DNA from: a phage
Strand: one strand, 5' to 3'
Sequence record: PX068455.1
Length of the DNA stretch: 64,000 nucleotides
The notes under the pieces were generated by a model. It did not search any database and was not told where the DNA came from. It worked only from the letters and a program-made list of their open reading frames with translations. Of the stretch, positions 24,568-42,960 are shown piece after piece. The number at the start of each line of letters is the position of its first letter. Position 1 is the stretch's first letter. Both the position numbers and the translations under genes were made by a program.

Positions 24568-26640
24568 TTATGAGAAGTCTGGCGGGACAACATCTTCTAC
24601 ATACCCTTTCAGAGCAACCTGCCCCATATGAAGCACGGTAGAATCTCTAGCGGTAACAGTGATGCTGTCAGACATTACTTGCGGGTATGCCCACACATAC
24701 TGTTTTACCTCAGGGTATCTATACTCTATAGTTGCCATGTTTCCGCAAATACATCTCCATAAAAATTCTTGGTAATTCCTAGTTGGGTCATAGCCATATA
24801 CCGGAGCAAGCTCTTTACTAGGAACGAACCCTGCAAGGTATTGTATTTCAGACGGTTGCCAACCTAACCTAACGATAGGTATGTTTACAGACTCTTTTGC
24901 CTTTTCAATACCTCCCTGCATCACCCAATCGTAGCACTCGGTGCAGAAGAAATCAAGAGCACCTGCTTCCTTTTTATATTGGTCAGCAAGGTTCAGCTTT
25001 TGTGTAAGCTCGGTTTCCATAATGGTTGGGAAAAACAGCAAAGCTGTCATCTGAGCTGATGCAGCGTGTGCCTTTACTGCCTTTGAAATAGCCGCAATAC
25101 GAGCGCCAAGCTTACCACGACAAAATGCCACATACTTGTCGTAAACACCGCCAGTTTTAGGATCGTCAATAGTCCCAATATCTAATGCATACTCACCTGT
25201 CTCATCATAAAACGCCTGCTTTGTAGGGTAATCATAAATACAAGGCCTACGAGTATCGGTATTGTACCACCACCACGGTTCACCAACCTGCATAATCACT
25301 GGCAGGTTGTTTCTCATAGCGGCTGATGCAAAATTCTTAAATACTGCAGTAAGGAAATTCATACCCTCTTCAATGGTTGGAGATAGGAGGTAGCTACAAG
25401 GTGTATACCCTGTTTTAGCGTAGTTATCGTTCCAGTCTCTTTGGGTCCATTCCAACGGGCAGGCATCGCTGAAAAGCTCAAAACTTACAGATTGCATAAC
25501 GTCGAAGTTATGTCGTTTGGCATTGTACATAAAATCATCATGCCATTTATAAGCTGCAGCGTTTAGCGCTCCTGTTCTGTTTATAGACCATTGGGTTCCG
25601 GACCATGTGTAGTCATAATAATGACTCATACCAACATAATGGTTTATGGTTCCGGTATATCCCAGACGCTTGATATTGTTCAACACCCTTAAAGGAGAGA
25701 CGTTCCACATATCGTCATATGCGGTGCAGATCCCAACGTCGTGCTCTCTCACCTGAATATTATTAAGTTGCATCATTTTCCAGCCTGTGTCTGGCTGAAG
25801 CAAATCTAGGCGCAACTCACACTCTACATTTTCCGTTCTCGGGTCTGTGCTATTACTTACCCAGTCTTTAGGCATGAGTGGTATTAAAATCCTTCTCACC
25901 TGCCGAGGATCAACACCCATCATGTTGTTGTTCTGGTCCATCCCGACGCAGTCCTCGAAATCAATATGAATTTCTGCAACATTCTTATCCTCTGAGATGC
26001 TGACAGCATATTGAGCTAAAGGAACATAGATGATTGTGCCATCAACAAGGTCTACAGTCATAATCATCTTTTCAGGAGTGGAGAAGTTGCTGGCGTTGGT
26101 TATTGACATTCTGAACCAAAGTTTGGTGTTTCTCATCTCATAGTGATCATCAAACCCAATACCGAAATGGTCATACTTGTCAACTGTTTCCCAAATGCAT
26201 CCAGCCATACCCCCATATGTTCTTGACACTAAACGGTTAATACAACAGTTGTTATCTGCAACAATACAGGTACTTTCAGTCTGCTGAGTAGTTGTAACCC
26301 AATATCTTGGGTGGAACATTCTCTCCTCGACAGTATCCCAAGATATCCTGTCAAGATTCTCATCTGAAACTATTGTACATTTCGCCCTTTGTGTCCCGAT
26401 CATCACCCCTTGAGATTTTGATGAAAACTCCATAAAGAAGCTTCTTGGCAACCTGTTGGGTAATTTGTCAACAATTTCCACCGGAATCTCAATACTGGTT
26501 GCCCCGACTGGGATAGTTACATCGCCCTCAACATGATCATAATCCCTACCAGGAACGGCAGTATCCTGAACTGTGCGGTAATGAAACTGCGCAGCCATTG
26601 TAGAGTAATCACGGTAAGGTTTAAAAACAGCTGTTGCCAT
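24568..26640 (-). CDS. virion structural protein, tail-fibre associated (function unknown)
   Basis: 690-aa ORF in the fibre cluster; no confident domain. Confidence 0.4.
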   Translation of the reverse strand: MATAVFKPYRDYSTMAAQFHYRTVQDTAVPGRDYDHVEGDVTIPVGATSIEIPVEIVDKLPNRLPRSFFMEFSSKSQGVMIGTQRAKCTIVSDENLDRISWDTVEERMFHPRYWVTTTQQTESTCIVADNNCCINRLVSRTYGGMAGCIWETVDKYDHFGIGFDDHYEMRNTKLWFRMSITNASNFSTPEKMIMTVDLVDGTIIYVPLAQYAVSISEDKNVAEIHIDFEDCVGMDQNNNMMGVDPRQVRRILIPLMPKDWVSNSTDPRTENVECELRLDLLQPDTGWKMMQLNNIQVREHDVGICTAYDDMWNVSPLRVLNNIKRLGYTGTINHYVGMSHYYDYTWSGTQWSINRTGALNAAAYKWHDDFMYNAKRHNFDVMQSVSFELFSDACPLEWTQRDWNDNYAKTGYTPCSYLLSPTIEEGMNFLTAVFKNFASAAMRNNLPVIMQVGEPWWWYNTDTRRPCIYDYPTKQAFYDETGEYALDIGTIDDPKTGGVYDKYVAFCRGKLGARIAAISKAVKAHAASAQMTALLFFPTIMETELTQKLNLADQYKKEAGALDFFCTECYDWVMQGGIEKAKESVNIPIVRLGWQPSEIQYLAGFVPSKELAPVYGYDPTRNYQEFLWRCICGNMATIEYRYPEVKQYVWAYPQVMSDSITVTARDSTVLHMGQVALKGYVEDVVPPDFS

Positions 26641-27326
26641 TAACCCTCCTGTCTAGTTGCGTTTACTGTAATACTTTCACAATAAATGGTTGTGGTGTCC
26701 CAATCAGGTCTTACGTCAGGAACATACAGCAAAGTAGCCAGCCCACCAACTCCGAATTGGTTTTCTTCCCACACTGATCCGAAGCCAAGAGCTGTATGGT
26801 CCCCTTCAAAACCAAAAGCTTGCCCTTGCGATTCTGTAAGACGCAAATGACAAGGCAATGGTAGCATGTCTAAGATCTGATCGATAGACTGCAATATGTC
26901 AAAGCAAGTTTTTCTAATATTTATGTCAAATCTGAAGTTGTCTCCTTTCCACGTATCGAAATTGTCCCTTCCGAACAATTGTCGCAAGGTGGAGATGACA
27001 TCTTCGCGAGTCCCACCCCTTGATGCTGCGGCCTGCTGAATAATCAGCGTGGCACGAAAATCAGCATCTGAAAGTCCATTCCTAAGAATACCAAGTTGAT
27101 TACCAACTTCGTCAAGGTATCTTCCGCTAGCATTGTTAAGCAATCTTCCTTCAGCCAAACCTACCAGCATCTTATCAACATCCTCCAACCTTTTAAGGTA
27201 CACGGTTAAGAATGTGACCAAATTAACCTTCTCAGCCAGAAAATCTCCAGGCAGGTAGTCAAGACCTCCCTGAACAAAATCTGGCAGAGTGTGGATGTGG
27301 TTAACATCCGACTTAATCTCTGCCAT
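26640..27326 (-). CDS. putative baseplate wedge protein (gpI-position)
   Basis: 228 aa immediately downstream of the baseplate-J-like gene. Confidence 0.35.
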   Translation of the reverse strand: MAEIKSDVNHIHTLPDFVQGGLDYLPGDFLAEKVNLVTFLTVYLKRLEDVDKMLVGLAEGRLLNNASGRYLDEVGNQLGILRNGLSDADFRATLIIQQAAASRGGTREDVISTLRQLFGRDNFDTWKGDNFRFDINIRKTCFDILQSIDQILDMLPLPCHLRLTESQGQAFGFEGDHTALGFGSVWEENQFGVGGLATLLYVPDVRPDWDTTTIYCESITVNATRQEG

Positions 27327-27337
27327 ATCTCGCCGCC

Positions 27338-28828: not shown

Positions 28829-28861
28829 GTCACTCCTCCGGTATGAAAATCTCTACAAGGT

Positions 28862-28890
28862 ATTTTACCAAATTTTGTAACAATAGTCAA
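28862..28890 (-). promoter_or_regulatory. sigma70-like promoter (TTGACT-17-TAAAAT)
   Basis: -35 at 28885-28890, -10 at 28862-28867 (minus sense); just downstream of terminator 28901-28924. Confidence 0.5.
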
Positions 28891-28900
28891 TCTGAGCATA

Positions 28901-28924
28901 AAAATAAACCCCGCCGAAGCGGGG
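28901..28924 (-). terminator. intrinsic terminator CCCCGC-UUCG-GCGGGG plus UUUAUUUU
   Basis: Same stem-loop as 2886-2901; follows stop of 28934..32773. Confidence 0.65.
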
Positions 28925-28933
28925 CTTTAAAGG

Positions 28934-31900
28934 TTAGTCGTGAGACTCGTTCCAAGGTCCTTGGAAACTAGAGTTAGAACGGCTTACCACAACAGTAGGA
29001 CAGGATATTGCGACCCCTGTTACAGAAGACGTTGACCATGGTGTGTAGATTTCAACAACAATATCTATGGTTTGTTCACCAAGACCCGTTATCCCTACTG
29101 CACACATACCGTTGTTGTCGTTTCCGTACTTCTTACCTGCAAGGATTTGATGTCCGGCTATCCAAACGTTAAGCTGGGAGCCAGACAAGGTTCCGTTTAG
29201 TTTAAAGAAGAATGTTACGTTCTTACCTTGTCCTGAAACGTTGTCCACATATCTCCACCTCCAACGGCAAACCCTCTGCTGTGAGTTATATACTGGAGGA
29301 CAGTCACCGTAGGTTCTGTGTGCAACTATTGCACCTTCGAACTGGTTAGCACGGATAACAGAAGCTTCTACACGCCCACGAAAGGTACCTCCGGTTGCAT
29401 CTATGGTGCCCCTAAAGCTACCATTATTGGCATAAACATCCCCACGGAAGGTACCACTAGTGGCGTTAACTGCCCCTGTGAAGTTACCAGAACTGGCGTT
29501 GATGTTGCCTTTCACCCACACATCCATAAATTGGGCGTGCCCGTTCTTGTTAATATACCAACCGTATTTATGGTACCCGTTGCCATCGTAGTTGTTTGAC
29601 GAAATTTCTTGTGCGATCTTGGCAGATGAAATCGTCCCGTTCTCTATAAAAGCATCTTTCAAGAACGCTTGGTTGTTCTTGATTGCGAAAGCAAGGGTTG
29701 CTGTTCCATTTCCAGGGTTGTATACCGCAAAATTGTTTGCACTAACCATGAAGTAGGATTGAACTTGGCCTCCAGACCCTTCCATCCCCAACTGGATACC
29801 TGCAACATATTTATTCCCTGCGGAGTCTACCTGTATTTTTGTGCCCCATTGAGCATTTACTTTACCCTCTAAGTCGGTTACAGCCTTAGATGTTGTAGCT
29901 ACTGCAGCCCTGATCTCGGACACATCCCCAACATCATCAATGATCTCCTGCTTAGCAACAGCAAGTTCTTGACGAATAGCTGACGCTGTGCCGTTGATAA
30001 GGTCCACAGTAGCTTTGTTGGTATCGGAAATTGTAGCATCCAGCGCTGTTTTTGTGGAAGTCAGTTTTCCATCCAAAGCATCAATCGCCTGCTTGTTGGT
30101 AGAAATCTCCCCACGTGCAGAAGTTATCTGCTCTGACAGTGCAGATGTTTTCTGATTCAACAAGTCAGTGGTGGCCTTGTTGGTATTGGCAATCAAGGTG
30201 TTGAGGTCAGTTTTTGCGGTGGTTATCTTGCCATCCAGGGTGGTATAGTTTTTAGATACCGTCGCGTTTGTCTGACTGATCTTTTGATCCAGAGTTTCAG
30301 ATGTCCTGTTCAAAAGATCCACAGTTGCCTGGTTAGTGCTCAAGATGCTTGCGTCAAGTTCTGTTCTCTGAGTATTGATCTTACCATCCAGAGTTTTATC
30401 TCCGGCTAAATACCCGCTCTCAACTCCCTCTATCTGCTCTACCAGCTCACCTTTGGCGGCAACCAATTTCTCATCTAAAGCCTCTGTCTTTTTGTTCAGA
30501 AGATCAGTAGTTGCTTTATTGGTTGTCTCGATCAGAGATGCCAGTCTGCCACTTTCAGTGTTCAGATCGTTGGTGAATTTGTTCTGTGCAGCAACAAGTT
30601 TCCTATCCAGCGCTGTAATGTTACCATTGACATCTTCAAACTTCTGAGTTGTTTCTGTAACTACCGCACCTATTCTGTCCCCAAGTTGTTGGAACGCTTC
30701 ATCTACCCTACCATCCATGTACCTGTTAAGTTCTGTGACACGATTTTCAACCTCTTCAATAGAGGAATCCAAAGTGCTCATCAACTCTTTATAAGTTTCT
30801 GTCTTTTTGAATTCAGCATCTATCTGAGGCATCAAATCCTCAATAGAGGTATAGCAGCGTGCAGCGCATTCTACAAACTGAGAGCTACCAAAAGCGTTTG
30901 TGGTTCGAATATACCAATAATAAACCTTATCGTTCTGCAGACCTTCAGATGTCCAAGTCGAACCAACACCCATACGGGTGGCTTCTGAAGTAACGGTTGC
31001 ATCACTAGTGTCTGGCAACCTTGTCATACCAGATGTCCAAAAGTCATACTGGGTGCTTACACTTGCTAAATCCCTGCTGTGTGGAATCAAGGTGATAGCA
31101 AAGTATCCTTGCTTAACCTCTACAGAAACAGGAGCTTCAGGTGCCTGAATGTTAAACTCGCAGTACGCTTCTGGAGATACACCACCTTTATAAGATGTTG
31201 CAACCACGGTTGCTGTGTATGACCCTTTGGTCAAGCCTTCTACTCTGACAAACTGCTCAACTGTCTGTGCTGTCCAAACAATCTCTCCGTTCTTTCTTAC
31301 CTGCACAATATTTTGAGCGTAAGTTCCAACGTTGTCCCAAGCCAAAACACCGTGAGTTACTTCCCCAGCTTGGAGAACGGAGTATCTGAAGTTTTGCGGT
31401 TGAGCTACACCGGATGGGGATATCGGAATATCTACATCGCCGGAATCCGGAAGTTGCCCTGTGGCATCATTCCACTCTTTAGCATCTTGACGAAGTTTTA
31501 CCTTGACACCGCCCTTTTTGGTGAACTCCCATTCAAGAACCCTCATTTCTTGGCCCACTATACCAATACTTGGGAGATTCATTGTAACGTAACGGCCAGG
31601 TTTAAATTTAAAACCTCGCATATTGCAGGTGACTTCAATAATCCTGCCAGCTCTAGCACGTCTTAAAAATATTGCAGAAACACGCTGAGCTTGATAAGGG
31701 CTGGTAACAAAGCGGTAGTCTATATCGATTATCTTTCTTTCTCCATCCTTCTCTATCCACTCTGGGACAAACACTGATGGAAAATCTGTTTCAGAATACC
31801 CTTTGGTCGGACTGGTGAATCTGCCAGTTATTGTGTTGGATCTTTTGTCAAACGAGGCTTCCGGATAGATCTTAACCTCACCACAGACACAGTCCTCACT

Positions 31901-32773
31901 CAGTGTCATTGTTGCCGGACCATAATATGCACCTACCAGCAGTCCATACTTACCAGCTACATAGCTGAGATCTGCACCACAAGCTTTCAGCATTTCTGCC
32001 ATAATACTTGCTGGGGCCTCATCCATATCGAACTCGCCATTAATGGTGTAACGGCGCTCACTAGTTCCGTCCGCGTTTCTTACCGCCTCATCGCATATGT
32101 TAGCAGCCTCCTTGAAGGACTCCCAGTTGATGGTTTCGTCAGGACATTTAAGGTACGTTCTTAAATAGTCTAGAATCACCAAGGCCGCGTTATTGGTATA
32201 CACCTCTTTACTGATACGAGGATCATAGCATTTTTTACCAACCTTGACGAGTGTAACGTTTGGCAACCCAAAAGGGAACTTGTTAGGGTCAAACCTGAAG
32301 CTGGCACGTAGCCAACTGATCCCTCTACCTATCATGTCTGGTGACCACGACGGGCAGTGTGTACCCATGAAAGGATCAGATGTTTTTCTGTCGTTATGTA
32401 GCTCCCACGATATCAAATCTCCATACGAGGAAATAGGATTACCGTCGATGAGTATATCTTCTATACCTTCCAGGGGATGATTGGCAAGAACAATAGCACA
32501 ATGGAGGGTCCTGTCCCTGTCCTGCTCCAAAAACGCAAGTAATCCAGATGTGCGTGTCTTCCCATACACTACAGAGCAAGGTGCAGCAGAAGATCTGAGA
32601 AGCTTTTGTCTATCTTGCTGACTTCTGTAAGATTTGTTGCCCTCAAAAATCTTATCCAGAGTTCTGGTGGTAACAGTGTTCAGGCTGTCAGCCAGAGCTG
32701 CCTTGGATGCGTTCCAGTCATAACTTGAAGATCTTGCAGAAGCAACGATGTTATCAATCATTGCAATTGGCAT
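28934..32773 (-). CDS. lambda gpJ-like host-specificity / central tail fibre protein with expanded coiled-coil repeats
   Basis: 1279 aa; matches to remembered lambda J signature blocks: NNAALVILDYLRT, PEAPVSVEVKQGYFAITLIPH, YYWYIRTTNAFGSSQFVE, YVAGIQLGMEG...FMVSANNFAVYNPGNG; about 330 aa of coiled-coil repeats inserted. Confidence 0.6.
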   Translation of the reverse strand: MPIAMIDNIVASARSSSYDWNASKAALADSLNTVTTRTLDKIFEGNKSYRSQQDRQKLLRSSAAPCSVVYGKTRTSGLLAFLEQDRDRTLHCAIVLANHPLEGIEDILIDGNPISSYGDLISWELHNDRKTSDPFMGTHCPSWSPDMIGRGISWLRASFRFDPNKFPFGLPNVTLVKVGKKCYDPRISKEVYTNNAALVILDYLRTYLKCPDETINWESFKEAANICDEAVRNADGTSERRYTINGEFDMDEAPASIMAEMLKACGADLSYVAGKYGLLVGAYYGPATMTLSEDCVCGEVKIYPEASFDKRSNTITGRFTSPTKGYSETDFPSVFVPEWIEKDGERKIIDIDYRFVTSPYQAQRVSAIFLRRARAGRIIEVTCNMRGFKFKPGRYVTMNLPSIGIVGQEMRVLEWEFTKKGGVKVKLRQDAKEWNDATGQLPDSGDVDIPISPSGVAQPQNFRYSVLQAGEVTHGVLAWDNVGTYAQNIVQVRKNGEIVWTAQTVEQFVRVEGLTKGSYTATVVATSYKGGVSPEAYCEFNIQAPEAPVSVEVKQGYFAITLIPHSRDLASVSTQYDFWTSGMTRLPDTSDATVTSEATRMGVGSTWTSEGLQNDKVYYWYIRTTNAFGSSQFVECAARCYTSIEDLMPQIDAEFKKTETYKELMSTLDSSIEEVENRVTELNRYMDGRVDEAFQQLGDRIGAVVTETTQKFEDVNGNITALDRKLVAAQNKFTNDLNTESGRLASLIETTNKATTDLLNKKTEALDEKLVAAKGELVEQIEGVESGYLAGDKTLDGKINTQRTELDASILSTNQATVDLLNRTSETLDQKISQTNATVSKNYTTLDGKITTAKTDLNTLIANTNKATTDLLNQKTSALSEQITSARGEISTNKQAIDALDGKLTSTKTALDATISDTNKATVDLINGTASAIRQELAVAKQEIIDDVGDVSEIRAAVATTSKAVTDLEGKVNAQWGTKIQVDSAGNKYVAGIQLGMEGSGGQVQSYFMVSANNFAVYNPGNGTATLAFAIKNNQAFLKDAFIENGTISSAKIAQEISSNNYDGNGYHKYGWYINKNGHAQFMDVWVKGNINASSGNFTGAVNATSGTFRGDVYANNGSFRGTIDATGGTFRGRVEASVIRANQFEGAIVAHRTYGDCPPVYNSQQRVCRWRWRYVDNVSGQGKNVTFFFKLNGTLSGSQLNVWIAGHQILAGKKYGNDNNGMCAVGITGLGEQTIDIVVEIYTPWSTSSVTGVAISCPTVVVSRSNSSFQGPWNESHD

Positions 32774-33210
32774 TAATACCTCCAGACATCAACAACAATA
32801 GAATCTTTCATGTCGAACATAAAGACCCCTTTATCACCTTTCGCCCAAATCTGGTTGTTCCAGAACACACCCGCGGTGAGTCCGTTCAGTCCTTCGAAAA
32901 TAACAATATCCCCACGCTGAACCTGTTTAGGAGTGTCCAGTCGAGTCATAAAGAAATCAAAAATAGTAGGCAGGTGTGTGGTTTTGAAATGAAGCATGCA
33001 CCATCTCTTGCTTTCCAACTCTGTTTTATACGTTCCTTCGAAGTTAGAAAGAAAATCTGTTCCGTATTGGGCATCAACACACTTAGCCGCAAAGGTGCAA
33101 CAATCGTGGAATCCCCATTCAAAAGGTATGGTGGCCTCTTCGTCAAACACTTTCCACAACCTTTCTTGCCAGTCCACTAGACGAGGATGTGTGCTCATTA
33201 AACCTCCCAA
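32773..33210 (-). CDS. NlpC/P60-like protein (lambda gpK-like C-terminal half)
   Basis: 145 aa; Cys in FEWGFHDCCTFAA and His in GDIVIFEGLNGLTAGVFW in papain-like order. Confidence 0.45.
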   Translation of the reverse strand: MGGLMSTHPRLVDWQERLWKVFDEEATIPFEWGFHDCCTFAAKCVDAQYGTDFLSNFEGTYKTELESKRWCMLHFKTTHLPTIFDFFMTRLDTPKQVQRGDIVIFEGLNGLTAGVFWNNQIWAKGDKGVFMFDMKDSIVVDVWRY

Positions 33211-33764: not shown

Positions 33765-34341
33765 AGAAGTTGATAACTATATTATCACCTTTTTGCATAG
33801 CATCGACTTTTTGCTTAATTTTATAAATATCTCTGATATGGAACCTACCCTTCGGGGATTGAGTTATTATCTTCATAGTGTCCCCTGCGGCAATAGGTTT
33901 TCTAAGTCTTGGAGATATGCTTATAACAGCAGACCCAACACCATCACTACGCACTGGAGCTGTTACCACTTTCAATTCATCATTGACAGATATTTTATCC
34001 CCAGCTCTGGCTATGTCTCTGTTTGGCTCCCATCCGACCGTATTCAAAAAATCGTCGTTGCCAGTAGGCCCAAGGGCGATTGGCTCATTAGCTGTTACTG
34101 AGTGACCGTAAGTTTTAATGAGAAAGATGTTCCCATCTTTATACACCTGATCAACAAAGCTTTTAAGCTCTAGCAACTGTGACTCGCTGATATTGGAGAC
34201 CGTCAAAGTGCCTTTCCAGTTAGGTGTGGCATAGGTTACTTTTTGCGTCTTACCTGTAAACGGACTTTTAAACGTAACAATATCTGCCAGCAGCTCCAAT
34301 CTAATATCTGGAAGGTATCTAGGCCTTTCCCATAAAAACAT
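33751..34341 (-). CDS. tail-tip protein (gpM-like), putative
   Basis: 196 aa; LTVSNISESQLLELKSFVDQV..G..FL weakly resembles lambda gpM core; GGAGG RBS. Confidence 0.3.
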   Translation of the reverse strand: MFLWERPRYLPDIRLELLADIVTFKSPFTGKTQKVTYATPNWKGTLTVSNISESQLLELKSFVDQVYKDGNIFLIKTYGHSVTANEPIALGPTGNDDFLNTVGWEPNRDIARAGDKISVNDELKVVTAPVRSDGVGSAVISISPRLRKPIAAGDTMKIITQSPKGRFHIRDIYKIKQKVDAMQKGDNIVINFFEDF

Positions 34342-34372
34342 TGTGCCTCCAGGTTAAACAATCATGATAGTT

Positions 34373-34401
34373 ATTTTACCAGATTTTGAGTTAATACGCA
34401 A
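34373..34401 (-). promoter_or_regulatory. sigma70-like promoter (TTGCGT-17-TAAAAT)
   Basis: -10 at 34373-34378, -35 at 34396-34401 (minus sense); shares the AAAAT(C/T)TGGTAAAATA core with the 28862 promoter. Confidence 0.45.
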
Positions 34402-34405
34402 TACA

Positions 34406-34433
34406 AACAAAAAGCCCCCGCCGAAGCGAGGGC
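34406..34433 (-). terminator. intrinsic terminator GCCCUCGC-UUCG-GCGGGGGC plus UUUUUGUU
   Basis: UUCG tetraloop hairpin after the stop of 34441..38241. Confidence 0.55.
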
Positions 34434-34440: not shown

Positions 34441-37400
34441 TTACTTCAATTTCTCTTGCAATCCAGTAACAACCTCTGTCAATTTTTTAACCTGCTCCTC
34501 AAGGGCGGTTATTTTATCGTCCTGTTCCCTGCAAACCTGGACAAGCAAGCCTGTTACAGCTGCGTAGTCAACGTTATAGAACCTTTCCTCAGTCATTAAA
34601 GGAATGCCGTCTTGAGTAGGACCTTCTATTTCCTTCCTTTTCACGAAAGATCCTACTGCCTCTGGCAATGCTTCCATAACCTCTTGAGCAATCACGCCTG
34701 CATAAGGCATACCATTCTCTTTCAAGGTGTAGGTATAGCCTTTCATCTTTCTAATTGCTTCCAGAGCGTTAGGTATGACCTCTATGTTATCCTTCAGGTC
34801 CCTATCGGAACTTTGACTAACAGTAGTACATTCTACCGTGCCGTTGACAGCAAAATATCTTGATTTAGCCTCATCTGCCTTAGCACCACAGTGGAATACC
34901 CAGCTGGCGACTGTTGAGTTATCACTTATCTGAAACTCCAGCACATTCTTCCTATCTGCGCCATTACCCCAATAGTACAACCTACCTGTATTAGAAGGCA
35001 TGTTGGAAGTGTTGGTAACATCCGCACCACCACCTGTGTGTATTGTGAACTCCGGTTCAAGATTGGATCCTTGAGTTTTTAAAGTGATACCTTTACCACC
35101 AAGCTGCTGCCAATGGCCCCATGTGAAAACACCACCTATCGTTGTTCCATAACGCAGGAATTTTTCTCCAAGATATGTCGTATATTCCTGTACGCAACTC
35201 TCTGGAACGTTGGCATAGTTTCTGTAGACAACGAGAGTACCTGCCTGGGAGCATGGGTAGTTTTTATCAAGTGCGGCCTGAGCATTAGCCTCCTGATGAT
35301 AAAAACCCTCTCTATCCCCTTTGTAGTCGTTAAGGTCATTAGTCCCCAGCCCTTGACCACGGTGCTGAATAACTTTGTTCCATGCCCTATGGTTACCACC
35401 CTCGATAGATCTGGTGTATAGCTGATCAAGGCGACCAGCCATTTGGAAGGCATAGTTTCCAGAAAACGCCACAGACAGCCCACCAACAACCATCGAACCT
35501 TCAGGTCCGTTGACATTGCCTGCCATTATTTTAGAAGGGTTGTTAGGACCAAACTGGTTGTTCCAGTCTGCACCAGTATGGCATACAAAACCACCTGGAG
35601 CTGAGAAAGTACCATCCTTGTTGAAGTTGTAGAATCTATGAGCTGTGCCTACAACATCGCGAACAATAACTTGACCAGCTTCCGGAGTAGATCTGAACTC
35701 TGCCTGGCCTTTGAGACCAGCACCATTACCGCATTTAGAGGTAAACGTACCGTTAGTCAGATCCTCTGTCCCATCAGATGCACACTGGAATCCTGCATTA
35801 GAGAATAACGCCTTTCTAGGACTGCCGTAGCACAAATAGTCAAGACCGTCTGCCCATAGCTCGACTTTTGGCATATTCATTTTGCTCATCACAGCATAGC
35901 GTTCAGCAGTGCCTATATAGTGCCACTGTGTGCCGCCGCCAGTGTAGAACCCTGAAGTACCTTTAAAATCAACAATAGGTCTGGTATTGGTGTTGTTATC
36001 TCCAAGAATGGCAAGATTCAAATCTGCTGACTGAAGAGGTGCAACGAACTTAACCCCATCCTGATTGTCTGTTACAGAGCCAACCTGGTAATCTTGCTCT
36101 CTGGTAAACACTTCGACAACATTTCTACTTGCGTATATGCTGACAGGGAAAGCACGAGCCTCTACATAGAAAGCAACATACTCTTGTTTACCCCTTGTTG
36201 GAGCAACCATCCCAAGAAGTGCTTTTTCATTCTGGTAGAAATTTACTACCCCGTAGAAAGCGTCCCCTCTGTCTGTCCAACCACCAGTTCTATAGTGACA
36301 CTGTAAGGTAGCACAGTTCATAGGGTCACCGCCGGATGACGATCTGGTAACTATGGTAATATCAGTGCCAGTTGCTGGAGCATAGTACGGATCTGTTCTA
36401 ACGATAATTGGGTAGTATTTCCCATCTTCCATCCCTGCGGTTCTTGGCAGTGTTAAGAAGTCTTTTACACCTGCTGCTATAGGAACTTTGAACAGATTCT
36501 GAGCATCTGCTAAAGTTGTGGCTCCAGTACCACCTGCGGCGTGAGGTAAAGGTTCCCACTTGGCCTTCCGGTTGTTATAAACACCCCATTCCAAACTGCC
36601 GTTACCGGATTCGTCCATCCCGCCATCCCAGATAACCATCTTGGCGGCTTTCTTGGACCCCCAAAAGCCTCTTTCTGCTCCTGAACTACGGATCCACTCC
36701 CCAAGTCCCCAGTTTGTCAGCTGACCAGTAAGATCCCCAACCTGCATATATTTAGGACAGTCTAATACACCGTCCTCGCGGAAACCTAAATATCTATGAG
36801 TTTCAGATCCTTTTGCACCTTTGTGGAGGTGGATTGTCAACCAAGCCTTATTGTCGTTTCTTACCTCAGAATAGATCCTATAACCATGCTCAAGAATACC
36901 ATCAGTATTATATTTATCTCCATGGAGAATACCTGAGGCCGATTTAACATCTCCAGAGTATTGAGCTAAGTAAAGGTGCCCGAAGGCTGGCGAGTTGTTT
37001 TTACCAAGGCCGATATGAGATCTGAAAGTATCATCGTTACGAGGTCTGACCATCGGCTGCCATGCAGTCCACTGGTTTGTGTTGGCCTGATAGGTTCTCA
37101 AATACCAAACATCTACGTTAGAAAATGGATAGTATTCCTGACGACAACCTGTACCGCCGTTAGCATTGTTCTGCCAAACAATCAAGTGACCAGCACCAGA
37201 ACCTGCAGGGTAACCATTTGCCTCAGTTGCATAAGCAGTCATCGGCTGGTAGTATACGCCATCCTGATTACCAGTCAAGTTATTGATATTGAAATTTGGC
37301 TCAAGGGCTGCACGTTGCTTATAGAAAGCACCGATATTGATACGGACTCCAGCGGCATCTCTAGCCCCTGTGCCGCCTTGCTCTATAGCAAGAGGTTGCC

Positions 37401-38241
37401 ACGAAGCTGTTTGTTGGTTCCACATACCCCAACGGCCTGTTGCATCAAGCTGCAAGTACCCTGCCGTATTTAAATCATCTCCAGCACGGATAACTGTTCT
37501 TGTTGGGTTGTTTGCCTCTAGGCGTTTAAATTCATCACGAAGTGCTATTCTTTTCGTTGTTGCTACACCGTTGGTTACTGCAATGGTGTACATGGCTCCG
37601 GTGGTAGCGCCACGGAAAATACCATCAACAGTTGTAGTATCACGACGAGATACCACACCGTTCAGAAATTTTTCACCAGCTGCTACAGAAGGGTAGTTGG
37701 TAGTTCTTCCCTCTTCAATAACTGCAGGGCCAACAAAGTTATCGAGGTGAATAACATCGCCTACAGTGTGCACTGTACCAAAATCTACACGCTGTGCAAG
37801 TGCTTTGGCATCGTTAGCTGTCTGAACAGTAACATCCATTACATCCTGGACAGACTGCCCTTCGGCTGTCATGATCATAGATGCGCCAATGGTAGATTCC
37901 AGCTCCTCCCTTAATGACGGATCTGTATATACCATCCATGCAGCGTCAGTAATCCCACCATCGGAGTACGGTGAAGACAGTGCAGGAACAGTGTGTGGAA
38001 ATTCGCCTTTCCAACGTAGGTAGAGGTCTTCCTCTTCGAAGTAGGCAAAATCCATTGGGCCGTTTAACTTACCACCTTCCTTAAAGGAGATTACATGAGA
38101 AACAGTCCCATCAACATGGACAACATCGCCAATTTTTACACGACGGGTCAGGTCTGGTTGTTGAACAACCAGGTAATCATCCTCTGTCACTGCGGTAGTG
38201 GCAGGAAGAGATTCAATTCTGACAACTTTAATATCAGCCAT
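34441..38241 (-). CDS. tail fibre/tailspike with C-terminal intramolecular chaperone (peptidase S74-like) domain
   Basis: 1266 aa; C-terminal SDRDLKDNIE...GYTYTL...GVIAQEV...coiled coil matches the self-cleaving chaperone signature; N-terminal 100 aa homologous to 40876..41544. Confidence 0.65.
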   Translation of the reverse strand: MADIKVVRIESLPATTAVTEDDYLVVQQPDLTRRVKIGDVVHVDGTVSHVISFKEGGKLNGPMDFAYFEEEDLYLRWKGEFPHTVPALSSPYSDGGITDAAWMVYTDPSLREELESTIGASMIMTAEGQSVQDVMDVTVQTANDAKALAQRVDFGTVHTVGDVIHLDNFVGPAVIEEGRTTNYPSVAAGEKFLNGVVSRRDTTTVDGIFRGATTGAMYTIAVTNGVATTKRIALRDEFKRLEANNPTRTVIRAGDDLNTAGYLQLDATGRWGMWNQQTASWQPLAIEQGGTGARDAAGVRINIGAFYKQRAALEPNFNINNLTGNQDGVYYQPMTAYATEANGYPAGSGAGHLIVWQNNANGGTGCRQEYYPFSNVDVWYLRTYQANTNQWTAWQPMVRPRNDDTFRSHIGLGKNNSPAFGHLYLAQYSGDVKSASGILHGDKYNTDGILEHGYRIYSEVRNDNKAWLTIHLHKGAKGSETHRYLGFREDGVLDCPKYMQVGDLTGQLTNWGLGEWIRSSGAERGFWGSKKAAKMVIWDGGMDESGNGSLEWGVYNNRKAKWEPLPHAAGGTGATTLADAQNLFKVPIAAGVKDFLTLPRTAGMEDGKYYPIIVRTDPYYAPATGTDITIVTRSSSGGDPMNCATLQCHYRTGGWTDRGDAFYGVVNFYQNEKALLGMVAPTRGKQEYVAFYVEARAFPVSIYASRNVVEVFTREQDYQVGSVTDNQDGVKFVAPLQSADLNLAILGDNNTNTRPIVDFKGTSGFYTGGGTQWHYIGTAERYAVMSKMNMPKVELWADGLDYLCYGSPRKALFSNAGFQCASDGTEDLTNGTFTSKCGNGAGLKGQAEFRSTPEAGQVIVRDVVGTAHRFYNFNKDGTFSAPGGFVCHTGADWNNQFGPNNPSKIMAGNVNGPEGSMVVGGLSVAFSGNYAFQMAGRLDQLYTRSIEGGNHRAWNKVIQHRGQGLGTNDLNDYKGDREGFYHQEANAQAALDKNYPCSQAGTLVVYRNYANVPESCVQEYTTYLGEKFLRYGTTIGGVFTWGHWQQLGGKGITLKTQGSNLEPEFTIHTGGGADVTNTSNMPSNTGRLYYWGNGADRKNVLEFQISDNSTVASWVFHCGAKADEAKSRYFAVNGTVECTTVSQSSDRDLKDNIEVIPNALEAIRKMKGYTYTLKENGMPYAGVIAQEVMEALPEAVGSFVKRKEIEGPTQDGIPLMTEERFYNVDYAAVTGLLVQVCREQDDKITALEEQVKKLTEVVTGLQEKLK

Positions 38242-38276: not shown

Positions 38277-40874
38277 TTAAAGGTACAATCCACGGTATTG
38301 AGCATAGAGGCCCAGACCGCGAAGGATTTCGCCAGAGTGATAGCCTACCGGATCAGAAACTGCCCAGCAGCCGTTTAAAACATTATCCCCATTAATGAAG
38401 TGGTGCTTTTGCAGTAGCTTCACACAGGCTTCTACAACAATGTCTATTTGAGGTATTGTCTCTGAATACCCACACAGACCTAGCCAGCAGCAACCTGCAA
38501 GCCATTCACCTACCACCCACATCCTGTCTCCTCTGTCTTGATAAGAATATCCCCCAGAGGTGTTAAAGTCTGTAGGCAGATTTCCTGAATGAGATGACTG
38601 GAATCTGTTGAGGAACCATGCCCATTTCTGGCAGAACAGGAATAGTCTTTCATCAACAGGTTCTTTATGTTTCTTGAGCTCATATATTGTGCGGCACGCA
38701 GCAACAAAAGATCTTGACTGGAGCTTAGAGTTATCTACCATCTCCCACCAACCAGTCAACCCTTCATTACCTCTTTGCCATACATAACGTGAGGCAACTG
38801 GACCCTCTGTCTTAAATGTATTATTATACCAGACTTGAGCGTCATACAGAAAGCCTATTGTATTTGACAATCTATGGCGATCTATGTTTTCTGCACCCAT
38901 ACAGTAGACTGCTGGGTATTGCATGCCAGGGTAGGGCCAATTTGGCCTTTCCTCTAAGAGATAGTTTTCCTTATCTATCACCTTTCCGGCAGGGAACACC
39001 CCTGGCGTGTGCCTGTATGCACCTTGCTTGTAGTTTCTGACATAGCAATCGCCAACCTTAGCGGTTGATTCTGTCTTGCTTGCCATCCATACGCTAAACC
39101 AGATTAGATAAGCATCCCTGTCTGCAATATAGAATTGCGGCAGCGTGTTGACGCAGTACAGATCAAACAAGCCATTACCTATCTGCCTGTCGCTTAGGCT
39201 GAAATCTACAGAGGTGAGCCCCTTAGGATTAGCAAAGAAAGGTTTAATCTCTTCTTCGGTGTGATGAGGTTGTGTCGGATCTAGTTTGAAATCTCCTAGA
39301 GTAAGAGTTTCTGTTATCCATTGTCCATTAGTGGCATATAGATCAGCATACCATAACCACCTGTCTTTGTCAAGAAATTTGACCCTTACCATCTCATCAT
39401 CTGATCGATAAGTTACTGAGTTTAAAGAAATCTCTCTTCCAAAATTGAAAGTTACTTTACCTCTTGCTATATTACAACGGGTGAAGTTGTCAGAGTGGTT
39501 GTAAATGTCGGTATCATACTGCATACCAACACCAGCACCACCGCTTACGGCAATGTTTTCCTCTTTAGGTAAGAGATACGGATTACCGTCTTTACCAACC
39601 ACCTCTACGAAATCAGTAACCTTGGCAACTATTTCTGTTACCTCTGCACCTCCAAAAGGGACACCTATCCTGTACTGTTTTTTGTTATTGTTACCATCAT
39701 TAAGGATGAAATGCGGCTGGAACAGAACACCTTCTCCTCCGAAATTCATAACAATTTCAGCATCTCTACCTATTTTGTATGTAGTCCCTTTTTGAATTAT
39801 TTCGCAAGGCTGGCGTGCGTTCATTCTAAAATTGATATACCCGTCACTGTCCCTGCTCATGACAGGAACTGTTCCTGCAACAAGACAAGCACCATCTGTG
39901 AACGGTGCCTTAATCAACGTGGTCTTTCTAAACAGCTTGTCGTAGGCGTTTATATCACTGAAATTAAGCAACTTGTTGTAAGACTGTTTAAACGCGGTGT
40001 AATACTTTTCCTCACCTGTCAAGGTGTAGAGTTGATAACAAGCGTCACACCACATTTCTTCCCCGTCCAACTCCGGGGCCTGATTATCTGCAACCACGTT
40101 TATAGGATTTACAATTACAGGGGATCCTGCAGGTATCACCGATCCACCCTGCTCTTGAGGTAATCTTACACAATAGGTCACCTTGTGGCTGCCTGTAACA
40201 CCCTTATCTTGTAATTGGATTGTGCCGAACTCTACAGATGTATGACCACTGTCGGCTATGCTACCGTTAGCCCAATAGCGGTTACCATCCCATGCTATAT
40301 ACCACTCAACCCACCAACTTAATCCGGATGTTGTCCAATCCGGGTTAGCATCTGTGCCGCCGTAAACATCAGAGTCTACAGTGTTTCTTCCTAACACACC
40401 GTTATACGCTTGGAATGCCTTGTCCAGGTATTCCCCCCATGTCGGAGATCCAGCTGGGATTTTTCCTCTACCATTGGTAAAAGACACCACCACATCTTTA
40501 AACCCACCATGTGATGGAACCCCGTCTGTGGATAGAGGGTAGTGGGACAATCTTTGCATTTTACTTTCTACAGCATATGCACCCAGAAGATGACTATTGT
40601 AAGCTTCCCAAGCATCTTTTGCCCTATCCAGATAGAAATCGCTTTTCGATGCCCTATATGCTTCAATGTATCCCAGAATCAACACAGCTTGGGACTCATG
40701 CATTGCCCAATCATTATTTATCTTATTACCTGCCCACCCTGCAGCTATAAGACCATCAGGGTTTACTAGCTTATTTTGTGTAGGGGTGTTGGTAATACCT
40801 GTGTTGTTATCGAGGCACTTCCTGTGCCCCTCAATCATCTGAAATACGTTATCAATGTTGTGTTGAATACGCAT
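38277..40874 (-). CDS. tailspike enzymatic subunit, putative glycoside hydrolase/depolymerase
   Basis: 865 aa; N-terminal helical region (ESQAVLILGYIEAYRASKSDFYLDRAKDAWEAY) suggestive of an alpha/alpha-barrel glycosidase; ATG one nt after stop of the adaptor ORF with AGGAG RBS. Confidence 0.4.
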   Translation of the reverse strand: MRIQHNIDNVFQMIEGHRKCLDNNTGITNTPTQNKLVNPDGLIAAGWAGNKINNDWAMHESQAVLILGYIEAYRASKSDFYLDRAKDAWEAYNSHLLGAYAVESKMQRLSHYPLSTDGVPSHGGFKDVVVSFTNGRGKIPAGSPTWGEYLDKAFQAYNGVLGRNTVDSDVYGGTDANPDWTTSGLSWWVEWYIAWDGNRYWANGSIADSGHTSVEFGTIQLQDKGVTGSHKVTYCVRLPQEQGGSVIPAGSPVIVNPINVVADNQAPELDGEEMWCDACYQLYTLTGEEKYYTAFKQSYNKLLNFSDINAYDKLFRKTTLIKAPFTDGACLVAGTVPVMSRDSDGYINFRMNARQPCEIIQKGTTYKIGRDAEIVMNFGGEGVLFQPHFILNDGNNNKKQYRIGVPFGGAEVTEIVAKVTDFVEVVGKDGNPYLLPKEENIAVSGGAGVGMQYDTDIYNHSDNFTRCNIARGKVTFNFGREISLNSVTYRSDDEMVRVKFLDKDRWLWYADLYATNGQWITETLTLGDFKLDPTQPHHTEEEIKPFFANPKGLTSVDFSLSDRQIGNGLFDLYCVNTLPQFYIADRDAYLIWFSVWMASKTESTAKVGDCYVRNYKQGAYRHTPGVFPAGKVIDKENYLLEERPNWPYPGMQYPAVYCMGAENIDRHRLSNTIGFLYDAQVWYNNTFKTEGPVASRYVWQRGNEGLTGWWEMVDNSKLQSRSFVAACRTIYELKKHKEPVDERLFLFCQKWAWFLNRFQSSHSGNLPTDFNTSGGYSYQDRGDRMWVVGEWLAGCCWLGLCGYSETIPQIDIVVEACVKLLQKHHFINGDNVLNGCWAVSDPVGYHSGEILRGLGLYAQYRGLYL

Positions 40875-40875
40875 C

Positions 40876-41544
40876 TTAGATAGCTCCTGCGATAATCAGT
40901 GCCCCGTACCAAGTTAACCCGTTGTCGTAGGTTTCCAACTTGAAAATATCTGTTGCACCAGCTGTAAATGTTAGGATAGGATCTCTTCCGTAGGACCATT
41001 TAACATTGTCAGGCCAATAGACTTTGTTGCCGCCAGAGGTCTGAGTAATGCATACGGTTATAGTTCTCGCCACCCCTTCAAGACCTTCTGTTTGATTTTC
41101 AAAAGAGATTGTGGTATTTGAAGTTAGTCGAACTTTAAAGGTATCCGCAACTTCAAGATCCATATCAAGCTGACCACCGATAGATCCGTAATCAACTATT
41201 CTGCCATAAGAAGTTGCAGCAAGCTCACCAAAAACAGACCATGCATTTGCAGACACACCCCCAGCACCCTCTACAGTGGAGTCTGGGAGGATTATTTTAG
41301 GATAATCCCCGTTCCACGTGTAGTAGCGCTTAGTCTCTGGGTCATAAGCAAAGTCCTTCTTGCTCTTAAGATAGCCACCCTCTGTGAAATAGACTATCTT
41401 AGTAATGCTAAGATCGTTGACAACATCGTCAATCTTAGCCTTTCTTGTCCCATCAGTCTGGTTGACAACCAAGAAGTCATCACTCAGGACTGTTTCTGCA
41501 TCTTCAAGATCTGGAATTGGTATTGTAGGATAAGCTACAGCCAT
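40876..41544 (-). CDS. tail fibre/tailspike N-terminal adaptor-domain protein
   Basis: 222 aa; DDFLVVNQTDGTRKAKIDDVV...FTEGGYLKSKKDFAY aligns with the N-terminus of 34441..38241. Confidence 0.5.
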   Translation of the reverse strand: MAVAYPTIPIPDLEDAETVLSDDFLVVNQTDGTRKAKIDDVVNDLSITKIVYFTEGGYLKSKKDFAYDPETKRYYTWNGDYPKIILPDSTVEGAGGVSANAWSVFGELAATSYGRIVDYGSIGGQLDMDLEVADTFKVRLTSNTTISFENQTEGLEGVARTITVCITQTSGGNKVYWPDNVKWSYGRDPILTFTAGATDIFKLETYDNGLTWYGALIIAGAI

Positions 41545-41553
41545 GATTTCTCC

Positions 41554-42270
41554 TTAGTTAACATCAATAGCACGACCAGACTGGTTGGCAATGGCCTCAT
41601 CATTGGAGGTAGCAATAACACCAGAGTATTCGCGCTCATCTGGAGCAAGCGTCCAGGTATTGCGGTTAATGGTTTGTTCTGCCTCAGTCATCAGCAGATC
41701 TTTATCCTGAGTCAACAGAGAGCCTACAGGGATCGGGTTTTCCATCTCAGGACCAGCATACTGGTTCCACCATGTGGCATCTCCGGTTCTAGGCAATCTG
41801 AAGTTGATCAGATAGTACAGTTTATTAGCCCACTTAATCCAACCCTCATCATCACAGAGAGAGGTTGTCCCAGAATCAGGCTGTGGGTAGGTGAACTGAT
41901 CAAGACCTACGAAAGCCAGCCTTACAATCTCGTTCTCTTTGGTAACAACCTCAAAGAACGCTTGGTATGTTCTCGATCTTCGATCCATGGTAGACTGGAA
42001 GTTTATGATGTTTAGCACATCCGGCTCTTGTCTTGCCACTTCCATAATCTTGTTATCAAGAACAGTCTTCATGACCTTCTTACTGAGAAAGTCCATATAA
42101 GGGAAGCCAAACAACTCGTCAAAGTACCAGCTCCCCTTCCACGTATTAAACCTCATCCACAAGCGCTGGCGCAGACTTACTTGGTTTGAATCTATCAACT
42201 CAAGACCTTTGTCTATCGCCAAATCGCCTGTCTGTGGGTCCATCAATATATCACTATAAAGCGTAGCCAT
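41554..42270 (-). CDS. baseplate protein with gpW/gp25-like N-terminal domain
   Basis: 238 aa; SLRQRLWMRFNTWKGSWYFDELFGFPY...ARQEPDV fits the W/gp25 pattern; C-terminal 120-aa extension. Confidence 0.45.
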   Translation of the reverse strand: MATLYSDILMDPQTGDLAIDKGLELIDSNQVSLRQRLWMRFNTWKGSWYFDELFGFPYMDFLSKKVMKTVLDNKIMEVARQEPDVLNIINFQSTMDRRSRTYQAFFEVVTKENEIVRLAFVGLDQFTYPQPDSGTTSLCDDEGWIKWANKLYYLINFRLPRTGDATWWNQYAGPEMENPIPVGSLLTQDKDLLMTEAEQTINRNTWTLAPDEREYSGVIATSNDEAIANQSGRAIDVN

Positions 42271-42282
42271 GAAAGCCCTCTA

Positions 42283-42960
42283 TTAGTGCGGTCCACTTGT
42301 CTCGCCATCAGGGCAAGAGTGGGTATGACCTTTATATTCTGCATAGAATGAATCCAAATCCACACCAGCAGCAGTTATAATTCTACCAGATGGGTCTATT
42401 GTGGCACCATTCATTCTGATATTTCCATCCACAGCAGCTCGCAAATTGGCAGCCCCGTTAGTGAAAGAAAACTCCCCGCTACTGTCGCACCGTAATGTCC
42501 CACCAGGTGTTTGAAGCTCAAAATCGCCAGAAGGTGTCAGTTTAAAATAAACCCTATCATTCCATAACTCTACGTTATCAGGATCGATCTGTAAAGCGTT
42601 TGAGTCTGAATGAACAGAGGTGATTGCCCACCCTGGAAACAGGCCGTGAGTTTGTTGATCGTCGTTATTGTTTTCATTTCTCTCTGAAAACTGCAATCCT
42701 ACAACATCCCCAGCCTTAATAGGAAGTGTTAACCTTGCCTTTCCGCTGTTTGCAGACATCACCTGAATTGGAACGTCATAGATAAGAGGGTATCTCTCCA
42801 CATCCCCGTCATCAAACGTGGTTTCAGCTATTGGCTGCACGGCTGCAGAAGGTATACTGTAGTCAACACTGACAACTCTGGCCCTGATACTGGTGTGATA
42901 GTCCCTCATTATTTTTTCTATAAAGGATCTTACAGCAGCATCTTTCCTATTTATTGCCAT
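42283..42960 (-). CDS. baseplate central spike, P2 gpV-like
   Basis: 225 aa; C-terminal EYKGHTHSCPDGETSGPH matches the gpV apex HTH..P.D..G.T motif. Confidence 0.6.
   Translation of the reverse strand: MAINRKDAAVRSFIEKIMRDYHTSIRARVVSVDYSIPSAAVQPIAETTFDDGDVERYPLIYDVPIQVMSANSGKARLTLPIKAGDVVGLQFSERNENNNDDQQTHGLFPGWAITSVHSDSNALQIDPDNVELWNDRVYFKLTPSGDFELQTPGGTLRCDSSGEFSFTNGAANLRAAVDGNIRMNGATIDPSGRIITAAGVDLDSFYAEYKGHTHSCPDGETSGPH

Follow-up and report, generated by a model that had tools for sequence, protein, structure and literature searches.

We examined the baseplate gene cluster in a 64,000-nucleotide stretch of phage DNA (sequence record PX068455.1), the whole of which is called the window here. 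Megablast showed that the window comes from an rV5-like coliphage (Vequintavirus), a myovirus; over 26640–42960 it is 100% identical to phage ECP2309 and 96.1% identical to rV5. Between about 50.5 kb and 13.7 kb every gene lies on the minus strand, and the GC content of the window is flat (0.42–0.47). In this cluster, the sheath initiator (SI) gene is separated by seven genes from that of wedge protein 2 (W2), and our analysis concerns this junction and what fills it. The genes and regulatory features are listed below in the direction of transcription, with protein lengths in amino acids (aa).

42960..43958, minus strand: baseplate hub (gp27/gpD class); 35% identical to phi92 gp137 (tblastn, E = 1e-52) and annotated as hub in relatives
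42283..42960, minus strand: central spike (gpV class) with an N-terminal OB-fold/spike domain; Pfam PF18352, E = 1.4e-9; phi92 spike by tblastn, E = 3e-22
41554..42270, minus strand: SI (gp25/gpW class), 238 aa; assigned by phmmer against PDB
40876..41544, minus strand: 222-aa adaptor, with an N-terminal Tail_spike_N docking domain (Pfam PF18668, E = 2.1e-10) and a C-terminal domain homologous to phi92 gp140; PHROG 7760
38277..40874, minus strand: 865-aa fibre/arm protein of the phi92 gp141 and PVP-SE1 gp050 family; PHROG 2871
34441..38241, minus strand: 1266-aa fibre, with an N-terminal Tail_spike_N domain and a C-terminal S74 intramolecular chaperone (both by Pfam); allelically variable
34372..34433, minus strand: predicted terminator (34433–34414), then the late-promoter motif AAAATCTGGTAAAATA (34387–34372), at the start of the J-module unit; rV5 t041 and P040 (PMC3606486, Table S4)
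33751..34341, minus strand: siphophage-type distal tail protein (Dit), 196 aa; a Dit fold was found
33198..33749, minus strand: siphophage-type hub protein 1 (lambda gpL/DUF2163 class), 183 aa if counted from the ATG of the GenBank records; the gpL/DUF2163 type was confirmed
32773..33210, minus strand: DUF6950 protein at the gpK/tail-tip assembly position; Pfam PF22262, E = 4.5e-33; 36–44% identical to the third gene of siphophage modules
28934..32773, minus strand: 1279-aa lambda-J-like tail tip/central fibre protein (rV5 gp37); Pfam Ig_J, Ig_J_second and Phage_Tail_Tip; allelically variable
28861..28927, minus strand: predicted terminator (28927–28906), then promoter TTGACT-17-TAAAAT with the TGGTAAAATA motif (28890–28861), ahead of W2; rV5 P036 (PMC3606486)
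27338..28828, minus strand: W2 (Baseplate_J/gpJ/gp6/TssF class); Pfam PF04865 Baseplate_J, E = 4.1e-9
26640..27326, minus strand: wedge protein 1 (W1; gpI/gp7/TssG class); phmmer to phiTE Wedge 1, 1.5e-66, and phi92 gp146, 1.2e-23

None of the core baseplate genes is missing: there are those for tube initiator, plug, hub, spike, SI, W2 and W1, followed by the short tail fibres. An earlier note on this DNA had named a spike, a gpW-like gene, a baseplate-J-like gene and the partner of the latter, and had placed about 12.7 kb between the first two and the last two. Its gene coordinates are exact minus-strand open reading frames (ORFs), and these assignments were borne out. The spike carries PF18352 and has its homolog in phi92. 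The gpW-like protein matched four solved sheath initiators by phmmer, among them phiTE SI (5e-61, aligned over residues 1–171), phi92 gp139 (5.5e-15) and Pam3 gp21 (0.003), and a Pfam scan of 41554–42270 gave no match, GPW_gp25 included. The C-terminus of this SI extends roughly 65 aa past that of the phiTE protein. The Baseplate_J protein matched phiTE Wedge 2 (1.7e-158) and phi92 gp145 (1.2e-55), and its partner is the counterpart of phiTE Wedge 1. From the SI stop codon to the W2 start (28829–41553) there are 12,725 bp, which hold seven genes, two terminators and two promoter motifs. In the simple baseplate operon of P2 and Mu, V, W, J and I are contiguous (Mu 45-46-47-48). This contiguity is not found here, where the W-like and J-like genes are seven genes apart.

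For the wedge of phi92, the cryo-electron microscopy paper gives one gp145 and two gp146 per wedge in its text, and gp145-i, gp145-o and gp146 in its legend (PMC13450770). PDB entry 21vq contains two gp145 chains and one gp146, which fits the legend and the usual (J-like)2:(I-like)1 stoichiometry.

The split baseplate order is ordinary, and it is already documented for rV5, phi92 and their relatives. The tail-fibre/baseplate locus of Vequintavirus is rV5 gp34–gp46 (PMC3606486; PMC8594841), and the window has the same gene order with near-identical sequence. In the BASEL study, the stretch between the tape-measure gene and gp27 was presented as a lateral tail fibre locus that is conserved and contains three genes with allelic variation, and "large orthologous loci" for lateral tail fibres were reported in all Vequintavirinae and also in their relatives (PMC8594841). 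By megablast, 126 GenBank phage records match 26640–42960, and 113 of them cover at least 80% of it at 90–100% identity; nearly all of these 113 are rV5-like Escherichia phages (Vequintavirus). The earlier note had taken the split for an insertion of receptor-binding cassettes into the wedge operon, and had held that the same order in related phages would speak against this. Within the genus the order is indeed the same, both in these 113 of 126 records and in every Vequintavirus locus whose gene order was compared (JohannBauhin, 241Ecol014PP, V18, nomo and ECP32). An analogous split occurs in phi92, Phapecoctavirus, Seunavirus, a Klebsiella phage, and Aeromonas and Vibrio phages.

The region is very likely the standard tail/baseplate late region of an rV5-like myovirus, in which the SI/W2 boundary serves as a slot whose content has two layers. 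Beyond the documented split, what is of interest is this conserved operon-boundary slot and, above all, a genus-specific siphophage tail-tip module inside it. In the literature searched, neither a cassette slot at a conserved operon boundary nor a complete siphophage tail-tip set in gp37–gp40 was found to be mentioned, and we found no paper on the J-like module of Vequintavirus.

The terminators at 34433–34414 and 28927–28906 are the two strongest of our scan, with GC-rich stems of 8–9 bp, TTCG loops and T-runs. Each immediately follows a stop codon, that of the 1266-aa gene and that of the 1279-aa gene, respectively, in the only intergenic gaps of roughly 100 nucleotides in the region, and the identical 16-mer AAAATNTGGTAAAATA follows each of them. 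As classes, promoter-like and terminator-like matches were not enriched over shuffled sequences (31 vs. 34.4 and 17 vs. 15.0, respectively), and the significance of these two predicted sites rests on their position and quality, not on class counts. The motif TGGTAAAATA, with up to one mismatch, was found 18 times in the window against 5.8 expected, an excess of about three-fold that none of 100 shuffles reached. Its exact copies on the minus strand are at 28861, 34372, 48512 and 52033, in intergenic gaps of the late region, and copies with one mismatch on that strand are at 22530, 45444, 56567, 58242, 59473 and other positions. These very sites were listed for rV5 by Kropinski et al. (2013) as the putative late promoters P036, P040, P051 and P056, together with terminator t041 (PMC3606486, Table S4). 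A terminator and motif also follow the tube gene, and such punctuation comes after the tape-measure protein (TMP) gene too. This punctuation is general to the late region and is not the scar of an insert.

The same arrangement precedes W2 in relatives. In phiTE, the SI stop codon is followed by a terminator, then ...TGATAAAATA..., and then the W2 ribosome-binding site. The window, phiTE and one Seunavirus-like phage all have a terminator with TG(A/G)TAAAATA immediately upstream of W2, which argues that W2 heads its own transcription unit throughout the subfamily and that the junction is a pre-existing operon boundary. The SI/W2 junction is thus a conserved predicted operon boundary, made up of a terminator and a TGnTAAAATA late-promoter motif. 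The earlier note had the two terminator–promoter pairs bracketing the inserted units. Both pairs are present, but they bracket the J-like module only, and the pair ahead of W2 already exists in phiTE with its empty slot.

We mapped the window proteins by tblastn onto 13 related loci and also compared the annotations of those loci. Loci of Vequintavirinae, of phi92-like phages and of Aeromonas and Vibrio phages have the order TMP, tube initiator, plug, hub, spike, SI, slot, W2, W1, short fibre. In Barba9A and Fifi318, the two farthest loci, the core order is kept only partly, and several core proteins had no tblastn match. The occupancy of the slot is as follows.

Slot empty: Erwinia Fifi318 (Ounavirinae)
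Slot empty: Vibrio 249E41-1
Slot empty: phiTE, Pantoea F5M2A and SSBI34 (Certrevirus-type, of the subfamily of rV5)
One gene in the slot: Rheinheimera Barba9A
Two genes in the slot: Aeromonas 4L372XY and Vibrio IBT_VpB-34
Three genes in the slot: Seunavirus
Five genes in the slot: phi92 and ETEC-TG
Six genes in the slot: a Klebsiella phage
Seven genes in the slot: the window

The seven genes of the window are not one insertion but form at least two layers that differ in age and origin. Layer A (34441–41544) comprises the adaptor, the 865-aa protein and the 1266-aa fibre. Adaptor residues 109–222 are 42% identical to phi92 gp140 by tblastn. The 865-aa protein aligned over its full length at 34–35% identity with homologs at the same position in phi92, ETEC-TG and Seunavirus; it had no sequence match in Pfam, NCBIfam or PDB, and the label of enzymatic tailspike that the earlier note had given it could not be confirmed. 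In the 1266-aa fibre, Pfam placed PF18668 at residues 46–103 and PF13884 (Peptidase_S74) at residues 1145–1196 (E = 7.1e-15), which fits the chaperone that the earlier note had predicted to be self-cleaving. This fibre is 87–97% identical within the genus, and its C-terminus is swapped in phage nomo. The N-termini of the adaptor and this fibre are 38% identical over the roughly 100 aa of Tail_spike_N, a duplication that tblastn also found in Seunavirus. By analogy with branched tailspike systems, this suggests that the two proteins dock on a common partner, for which the 865-aa "arm", itself with no detectable domain, is a candidate by its position. No terminator was predicted before 34433, which puts layer A in the hub–spike–SI transcription unit as far as predicted sites go. 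Judged by its distribution, layer A is the older layer, being shared with Seunavirus and phi92-like phages; its adaptor/865-aa unit is old because it is common to these phages in the same slot at only 34–43% identity.

The cassettes also appear to move. The phi92 gp141 protein is 76% identical over 950 aa to its counterpart in a Seunavirus-like Salmonella phage (865-aa family; loci 4712–7588 vs. 14949–17798), whereas the neighbouring core baseplate proteins of the two phages are 27–35% identical (SI, W2 and hub 31–34%). This points to a recent horizontal exchange of the fibre cassette between subfamilies at the same slot. In Fifi318, the adaptor/865-aa pair lies downstream of the wedge genes. 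Conversely, gp142 and gp144 of phi92 are in the slot, and their homologs in the window are downstream of the wedge genes. The homolog of gp142 is the following gene.

24568..26640, minus strand: 690-aa N4 gp65-like receptor-binding protein; Pfam PF23845 (1.1e-80), PF23844 and Calx-beta; 42–43% identical to phi92 and ETEC-TG by tblastn

This protein is encoded just downstream of the wedge genes here and inside the slot in phi92. The N4 gp65-like "non-contractile tail sheath" is the label of the receptor-binding family to which it belongs, and a 2026 preprint linked phi92 gp142 to NGR glycan binding.

The single large slot fibre of Vibrio IBT_VpB-34 (locus 8916–11468) has an N-terminal domain that is 42% identical over 106 aa to that of the 581-aa fibre of the window and of the phiTE long tail fibre (LTF). 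In phiTE, the LTF's N-terminal domain bundles with the C-terminal helix of SI in a fibre-docking bundle (PMC11972413). By the annotations and the tblastn comparisons, the length of SI follows the occupancy of the slot. The SI is 138 aa long in Fifi318, 174–177 aa in SSBI34, phiTE and F5M2A, and 184 aa in Vibrio 249E41-1, where the slot is empty; with a filled slot it has 183 aa in IBT_VpB-34, 203–211 aa in the Aeromonas, Seunavirus, Klebsiella, phi92 and ETEC-TG phages, 238 aa in the window and 441 aa in Barba9A, in a comparison that is small and not phylogenetically independent. The extra C-terminal tail of SI may be a docking site. By analogy with the "rip-cord bundle" of phiTE, we also considered that the gene directly after SI encodes a fibre that binds the SI C-terminal helix. 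This idea is not supported: the homolog of the phiTE LTF is the 581-aa protein at 19424–21169, far downstream, although IBT_VpB-34 does have such a fibre in its slot.

These data bear on the direction of change. One explanation is that the ancestor of Vequintavirinae and Stephanstirmvirinae already had fibre genes between SI and W2, so that the contiguity in phiTE, F5M2A, SSBI34 and 249E41-1 arose by deletion and only the J module was inserted. The homologous adaptor and 865-aa genes at one position in Vequintavirus, Seunavirus, phi92 and ETEC-TG would agree with it, as would the reduced fibre set and shorter SI of Certrevirus-type phages (174–177 aa vs. 204–238 aa). However, the unit moves horizontally, as the 76% vs. 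about 31% identity between phi92 and the Seunavirus-like phage and the other position in Ounavirinae indicate, and a shared position therefore need not mean shared ancestry. The more distant outgroup Ounavirinae is contiguous as well, like P2 and Mu in the textbook case. We regard an ancestral split as a serious possibility, if on the doubtful side.

The two terminator/promoter pairs exactly enclose layer B (28934–34341). The four genes in it match, in order and in size, the four genes directly after the tape-measure gene in the siphophages CSP1C, FSL SP-016, K9PH25C2 (Queuovirinae) and Vibrio 1216, at 30–54% identity. The J-like module that the earlier note had seen in the gap is present, and its last protein has clear J features: PF24489 (1.9e-30), PF09327 (1.2e-38), a phmmer match to lambda J (2.1e-28) and 47–54% identity to siphophage J proteins. 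Weak Pfam matches to Apolipoprotein, SF-assemblin and DUF1664 at residues 643–971 suggested a long predicted coiled-coil insert. DUF6950 is the sole domain match of the third protein, whose CSP1C homolog is annotated as a peptidoglycan endopeptidase. A first single-sequence homolog search with the hub-like protein gave only three proteins, and the Dit homolog is encoded by many enterobacterial prophages.

The module was found in none of the other Vequintavirinae or phi92-like loci among the 13 mapped by tblastn. In a search with the J-like protein, 2156 phage records matched and 127 covered at least 80% of the query; the full-length matches among the sampled rows were all Escherichia phages of about 136–138 kb, like rV5, and the best match outside this group was siphophage CSP1C, with 76% coverage. 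By these comparisons the module is specific to Vequintavirus, with a predicted late transcription unit of its own. The rV5-like loci with fully compared annotation (JohannBauhin, 241Ecol014PP, nomo and ECP32) each have the four genes intact. Within the genus, Dit, hub and DUF6950 proteins are 96–99% identical and the J-like protein 79–83%. The latter has allelic forms of 1022+183, 1279 and 1381 aa, and besides it only the 1266-aa fibre is variable. Such allelic variation of J is the pattern expected of a receptor-binding protein, and it agrees with the three variable fibre genes of BASEL (PMC8594841). The product of the J homolog, rV5 gp37, is among 19 proteins detected in purified virions by mass spectrometry (MS).

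In the V18 record (129 kb; locus 2594–9935), the J-like and large fibre genes are split into shorter ORFs and the wedge genes are shortened. These changes are probably sequencing or assembly errors, or pseudogenes.

The layout is probably to be explained as follows. The SI/W2 junction of this lineage would be a transcription-unit boundary, with an intrinsic terminator and then the TGnTAAAATA late promoter, at which genes could be added without disturbing the expression of essential genes. Since the boundary would tolerate added genes, it could serve as a slot where receptor-binding cassettes are gained, lost and swapped, and from which they move to and from a second fibre cluster past the wedge genes. 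Layer A would have been appended to the hub/spike/initiator operon, with homologous units in the same slot of Seunavirus and phi92-like phages; the 1266-aa fibre would share the docking domain of the adaptor and mature through its S74 chaperone. Layer B would be an autonomous late unit of Dit, gpL-type hub, DUF6950 protein and J-like fibre, acquired once by the Vequintavirus ancestor from a siphophage like Queuovirinae or like an enterobacterial prophage. Its products would form a Dit–hub–J complex on the virion as an extra receptor-binding appendage, and the variable C-terminal part of J would be a host-range determinant.

We can go one step further, tentatively. It is quite possible that in this myovirus genus the whole tail-tip organelle of a siphophage (Dit hexamer, gpL-type hub, J trimer and DUF6950 protein) has been co-opted, under its own late promoter, and is mounted on the contractile-tail baseplate as a lateral appendage or an alternative tip, docked on the lengthened SI C-terminus or the wedge periphery.

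Several points weigh against the explanation by a slot with two layers. The sampled genomes do not fix the direction of change, and the empty slot of the Certrevirus type could be a secondary loss. The function of the promoters and terminators is a prediction only. The MS signal of gp37 in rV5 virions is weak (4 peptides, 4.2% coverage, one clean tryptic peptide), and Dit, hub and DUF6950 protein (gp38–40) are not among the proteins reported in that MS analysis. Compared by tblastn with its siphophage homologs, the module showed no rV5-specific anchoring domain by which it would attach to a contractile-tail baseplate. The structural model of the hub has only moderate confidence (predicted local distance difference test score, pLDDT, 74.7), and the PDB matches of the baseplate proteins include no solved rV5-like baseplate.

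Some of these points would suit a passenger module that is no working part of the virion, such as a relic of the moron type or a supplier of free complexes that serve as decoys or resemble bacteriocins. Such a module could well be a self-contained unit of transcription, as predicted here, lacking both a partner among tape-measure or tube proteins and a recognisable domain for anchoring, and it would leave a weak MS signal for gp37 and none for gp38–40. We consider it improbable. The four genes are intact in four annotated loci, and the region is covered at 90–100% identity in at least 113 records; the exception is V18, in which the J-like ORF and several fibre genes are shortened or split. The small proteins are 96–99% conserved while J is diversified like receptor-binding proteins (PMC8594841), the module has the same late-promoter motif as structural genes, and gp37 peptides occur in purified virions.

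The earlier note had also proposed to compare GC and codon usage across the insert with the flanking baseplate genes. The GC content, GC content at third codon positions (GC3) and codon usage of the slot genes were indistinguishable from those of their flanks. The GC content was 0.447–0.452 in the slot and 0.431–0.451 in the flanks. The codon-usage distance was 0.322 for the J module against a resampling null of 0.313 ± 0.062, and 0.383 for layer A against 0.253 ± 0.051, with the two wedge genes themselves at 0.496. A single, fairly recent insertion of receptor-binding cassettes, about 12.7 kb in all, into a contiguous V-W-J-I operon, delimited by the two terminator/promoter pairs, is very improbable: the contiguous spike/SI/wedge order of outgroups and Certrevirus-type relatives would fit it, as would the promoter motifs and the strength of the terminators at 28.9 and 34.4 kb, but an identical order in at least 113 genomes and the lack of deviation in GC and codon usage argue against a recent event, the adaptor/865-aa unit has counterparts with only 34–43% identity in this slot of Seunavirus and phi92-like phages, and is therefore old, while the J module is confined to Vequintavirus, and the regulatory pairs flank that module only, one of them being present in phiTE with an empty slot. 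The interpretation in the earlier note is thus partly supported. Receptor-binding genes do lie inside a cluster that is contiguous in Fifi318, 249E41-1, phiTE, SSBI34 and F5M2A, and as a deep evolutionary statement it holds; as a single or recent insertion it is wrong.

Further fibre genes lie beyond the wedge genes. Two paralogous short tail fibres of 348 and 346 aa (21457–22503 and 23515–24555, minus strand) flank a Caudo_TAP chaperone (22916–23500). By tblastn, the short tail fibre is single-copy in phi92, Seunavirus and phiTE, and its duplication was remarked on in BASEL (PMC8594841). At the far end of the fibre region, the 1878-aa ORF at 13739–19375 (minus strand) is a homolog of rV5 gp27, and its annotation is that of a lateral tail fibre carrying an intimin/Ig domain; past it, at about 7–14 kb, there is a strand switch with a reversal of GC skew. 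Elsewhere in the window, ARAGORN detected a cluster of seven tRNA genes (60927–61738). It includes a 99-nucleotide "tRNA-???" (61171–61269, minus strand) with a four-base anticodon (atcc) between tRNA-Thr and tRNA-Ser, which could be intron-containing, degenerate or a false call.

The SI/W2 slot gives a rule for locating receptor-binding genes in Vequintavirinae and phi92-like phages. As a conserved boundary that lineages fill to different degrees, it is a natural "safe harbour" for host-range engineering of therapeutic phages of these groups. The tail-tip module raises a structural question, namely how Dit, hub and J attach to a contractile-tail baseplate, and which of the unassigned fibres of the "Swiss-army-knife" phages they represent. 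If true, the co-opted tail tip would be a chimeric adsorption apparatus that joins contractile and non-contractile tail architectures.

Among known systems, the rV5/Vequintavirus locus has essentially the same DNA and gene order as the window, and nothing substantive differs. The whole virion of phi92 was solved in 2026 (PMC13450770). The gene order of its baseplate and fibre cluster (gp134–gp151) is like that of the window: TMP gp134, tube initiator gp135, plug gp136, hub gp137, spike, SI gp139, fibres gp140–gp144, wedge gp145/gp146 and fibre III gp147 (PMC13450770). In phi92, the split from gp139 to gp145 amounts to 8.6 kb and is made up of fibre genes, and phi92 shares homologs of the adaptor C-terminal domain and of the 865-aa and 690-aa proteins. 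However, phi92 has the endosialidase gp143, gp142 and gp144 in the slot and lacks the Dit–hub–DUF6950–J module, and its core proteins are only 25–35% identical to those of the window.

The closest solved baseplate is that of phiTE (Certrevirus; PMC11972413; PDB 9cuy/9mjn), whose SI, W2 and W1 are 57%, 51% and 50% identical to those of the window. It has the terminator and TGATAAAATA motif upstream of W2, and its long tail fibre is homologous to the 581-aa fibre. Unlike the window, phiTE has an empty slot, with W2 directly after SI, and its SI of 177 aa is without the C-terminal tail of roughly 65 aa.

The spike, gpW/gp25 sheath initiator, gpJ/gp6 wedge and gpI/gp7 wedge classes of P2 and Mu are all present in the window, whereas the seven genes between W and J, and a plug and tube initiator that are also in the cluster, set it apart from those phages. 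Behind the wedge genes come the short tail fibre and its chaperone, in the manner of S/U in Mu (PMC8594841).

Tail_spike_N, with which both the adaptor and the 1266-aa fibre begin, is also the docking domain used in branched tailspike systems (CBA120 TSP1-4; G7C gp63.1/gp66), but outside it the adaptor and the fibre are not homologs of the Ackermannviridae or G7C proteins.

Finally, the module resembles siphophage tail tips (lambda M-L-K-I-J; T5 pb9/pb3; T1, JBD30, R4C and the RcGTA-type Dit–hub–peptidase–J) in its four collinear genes of matching size and in its J domains. It differs from them in that it belongs to a sheath-encoding phage, lies about 11 kb from the TMP gene, has its own predicted transcription and comes without a cognate non-contractile tube.

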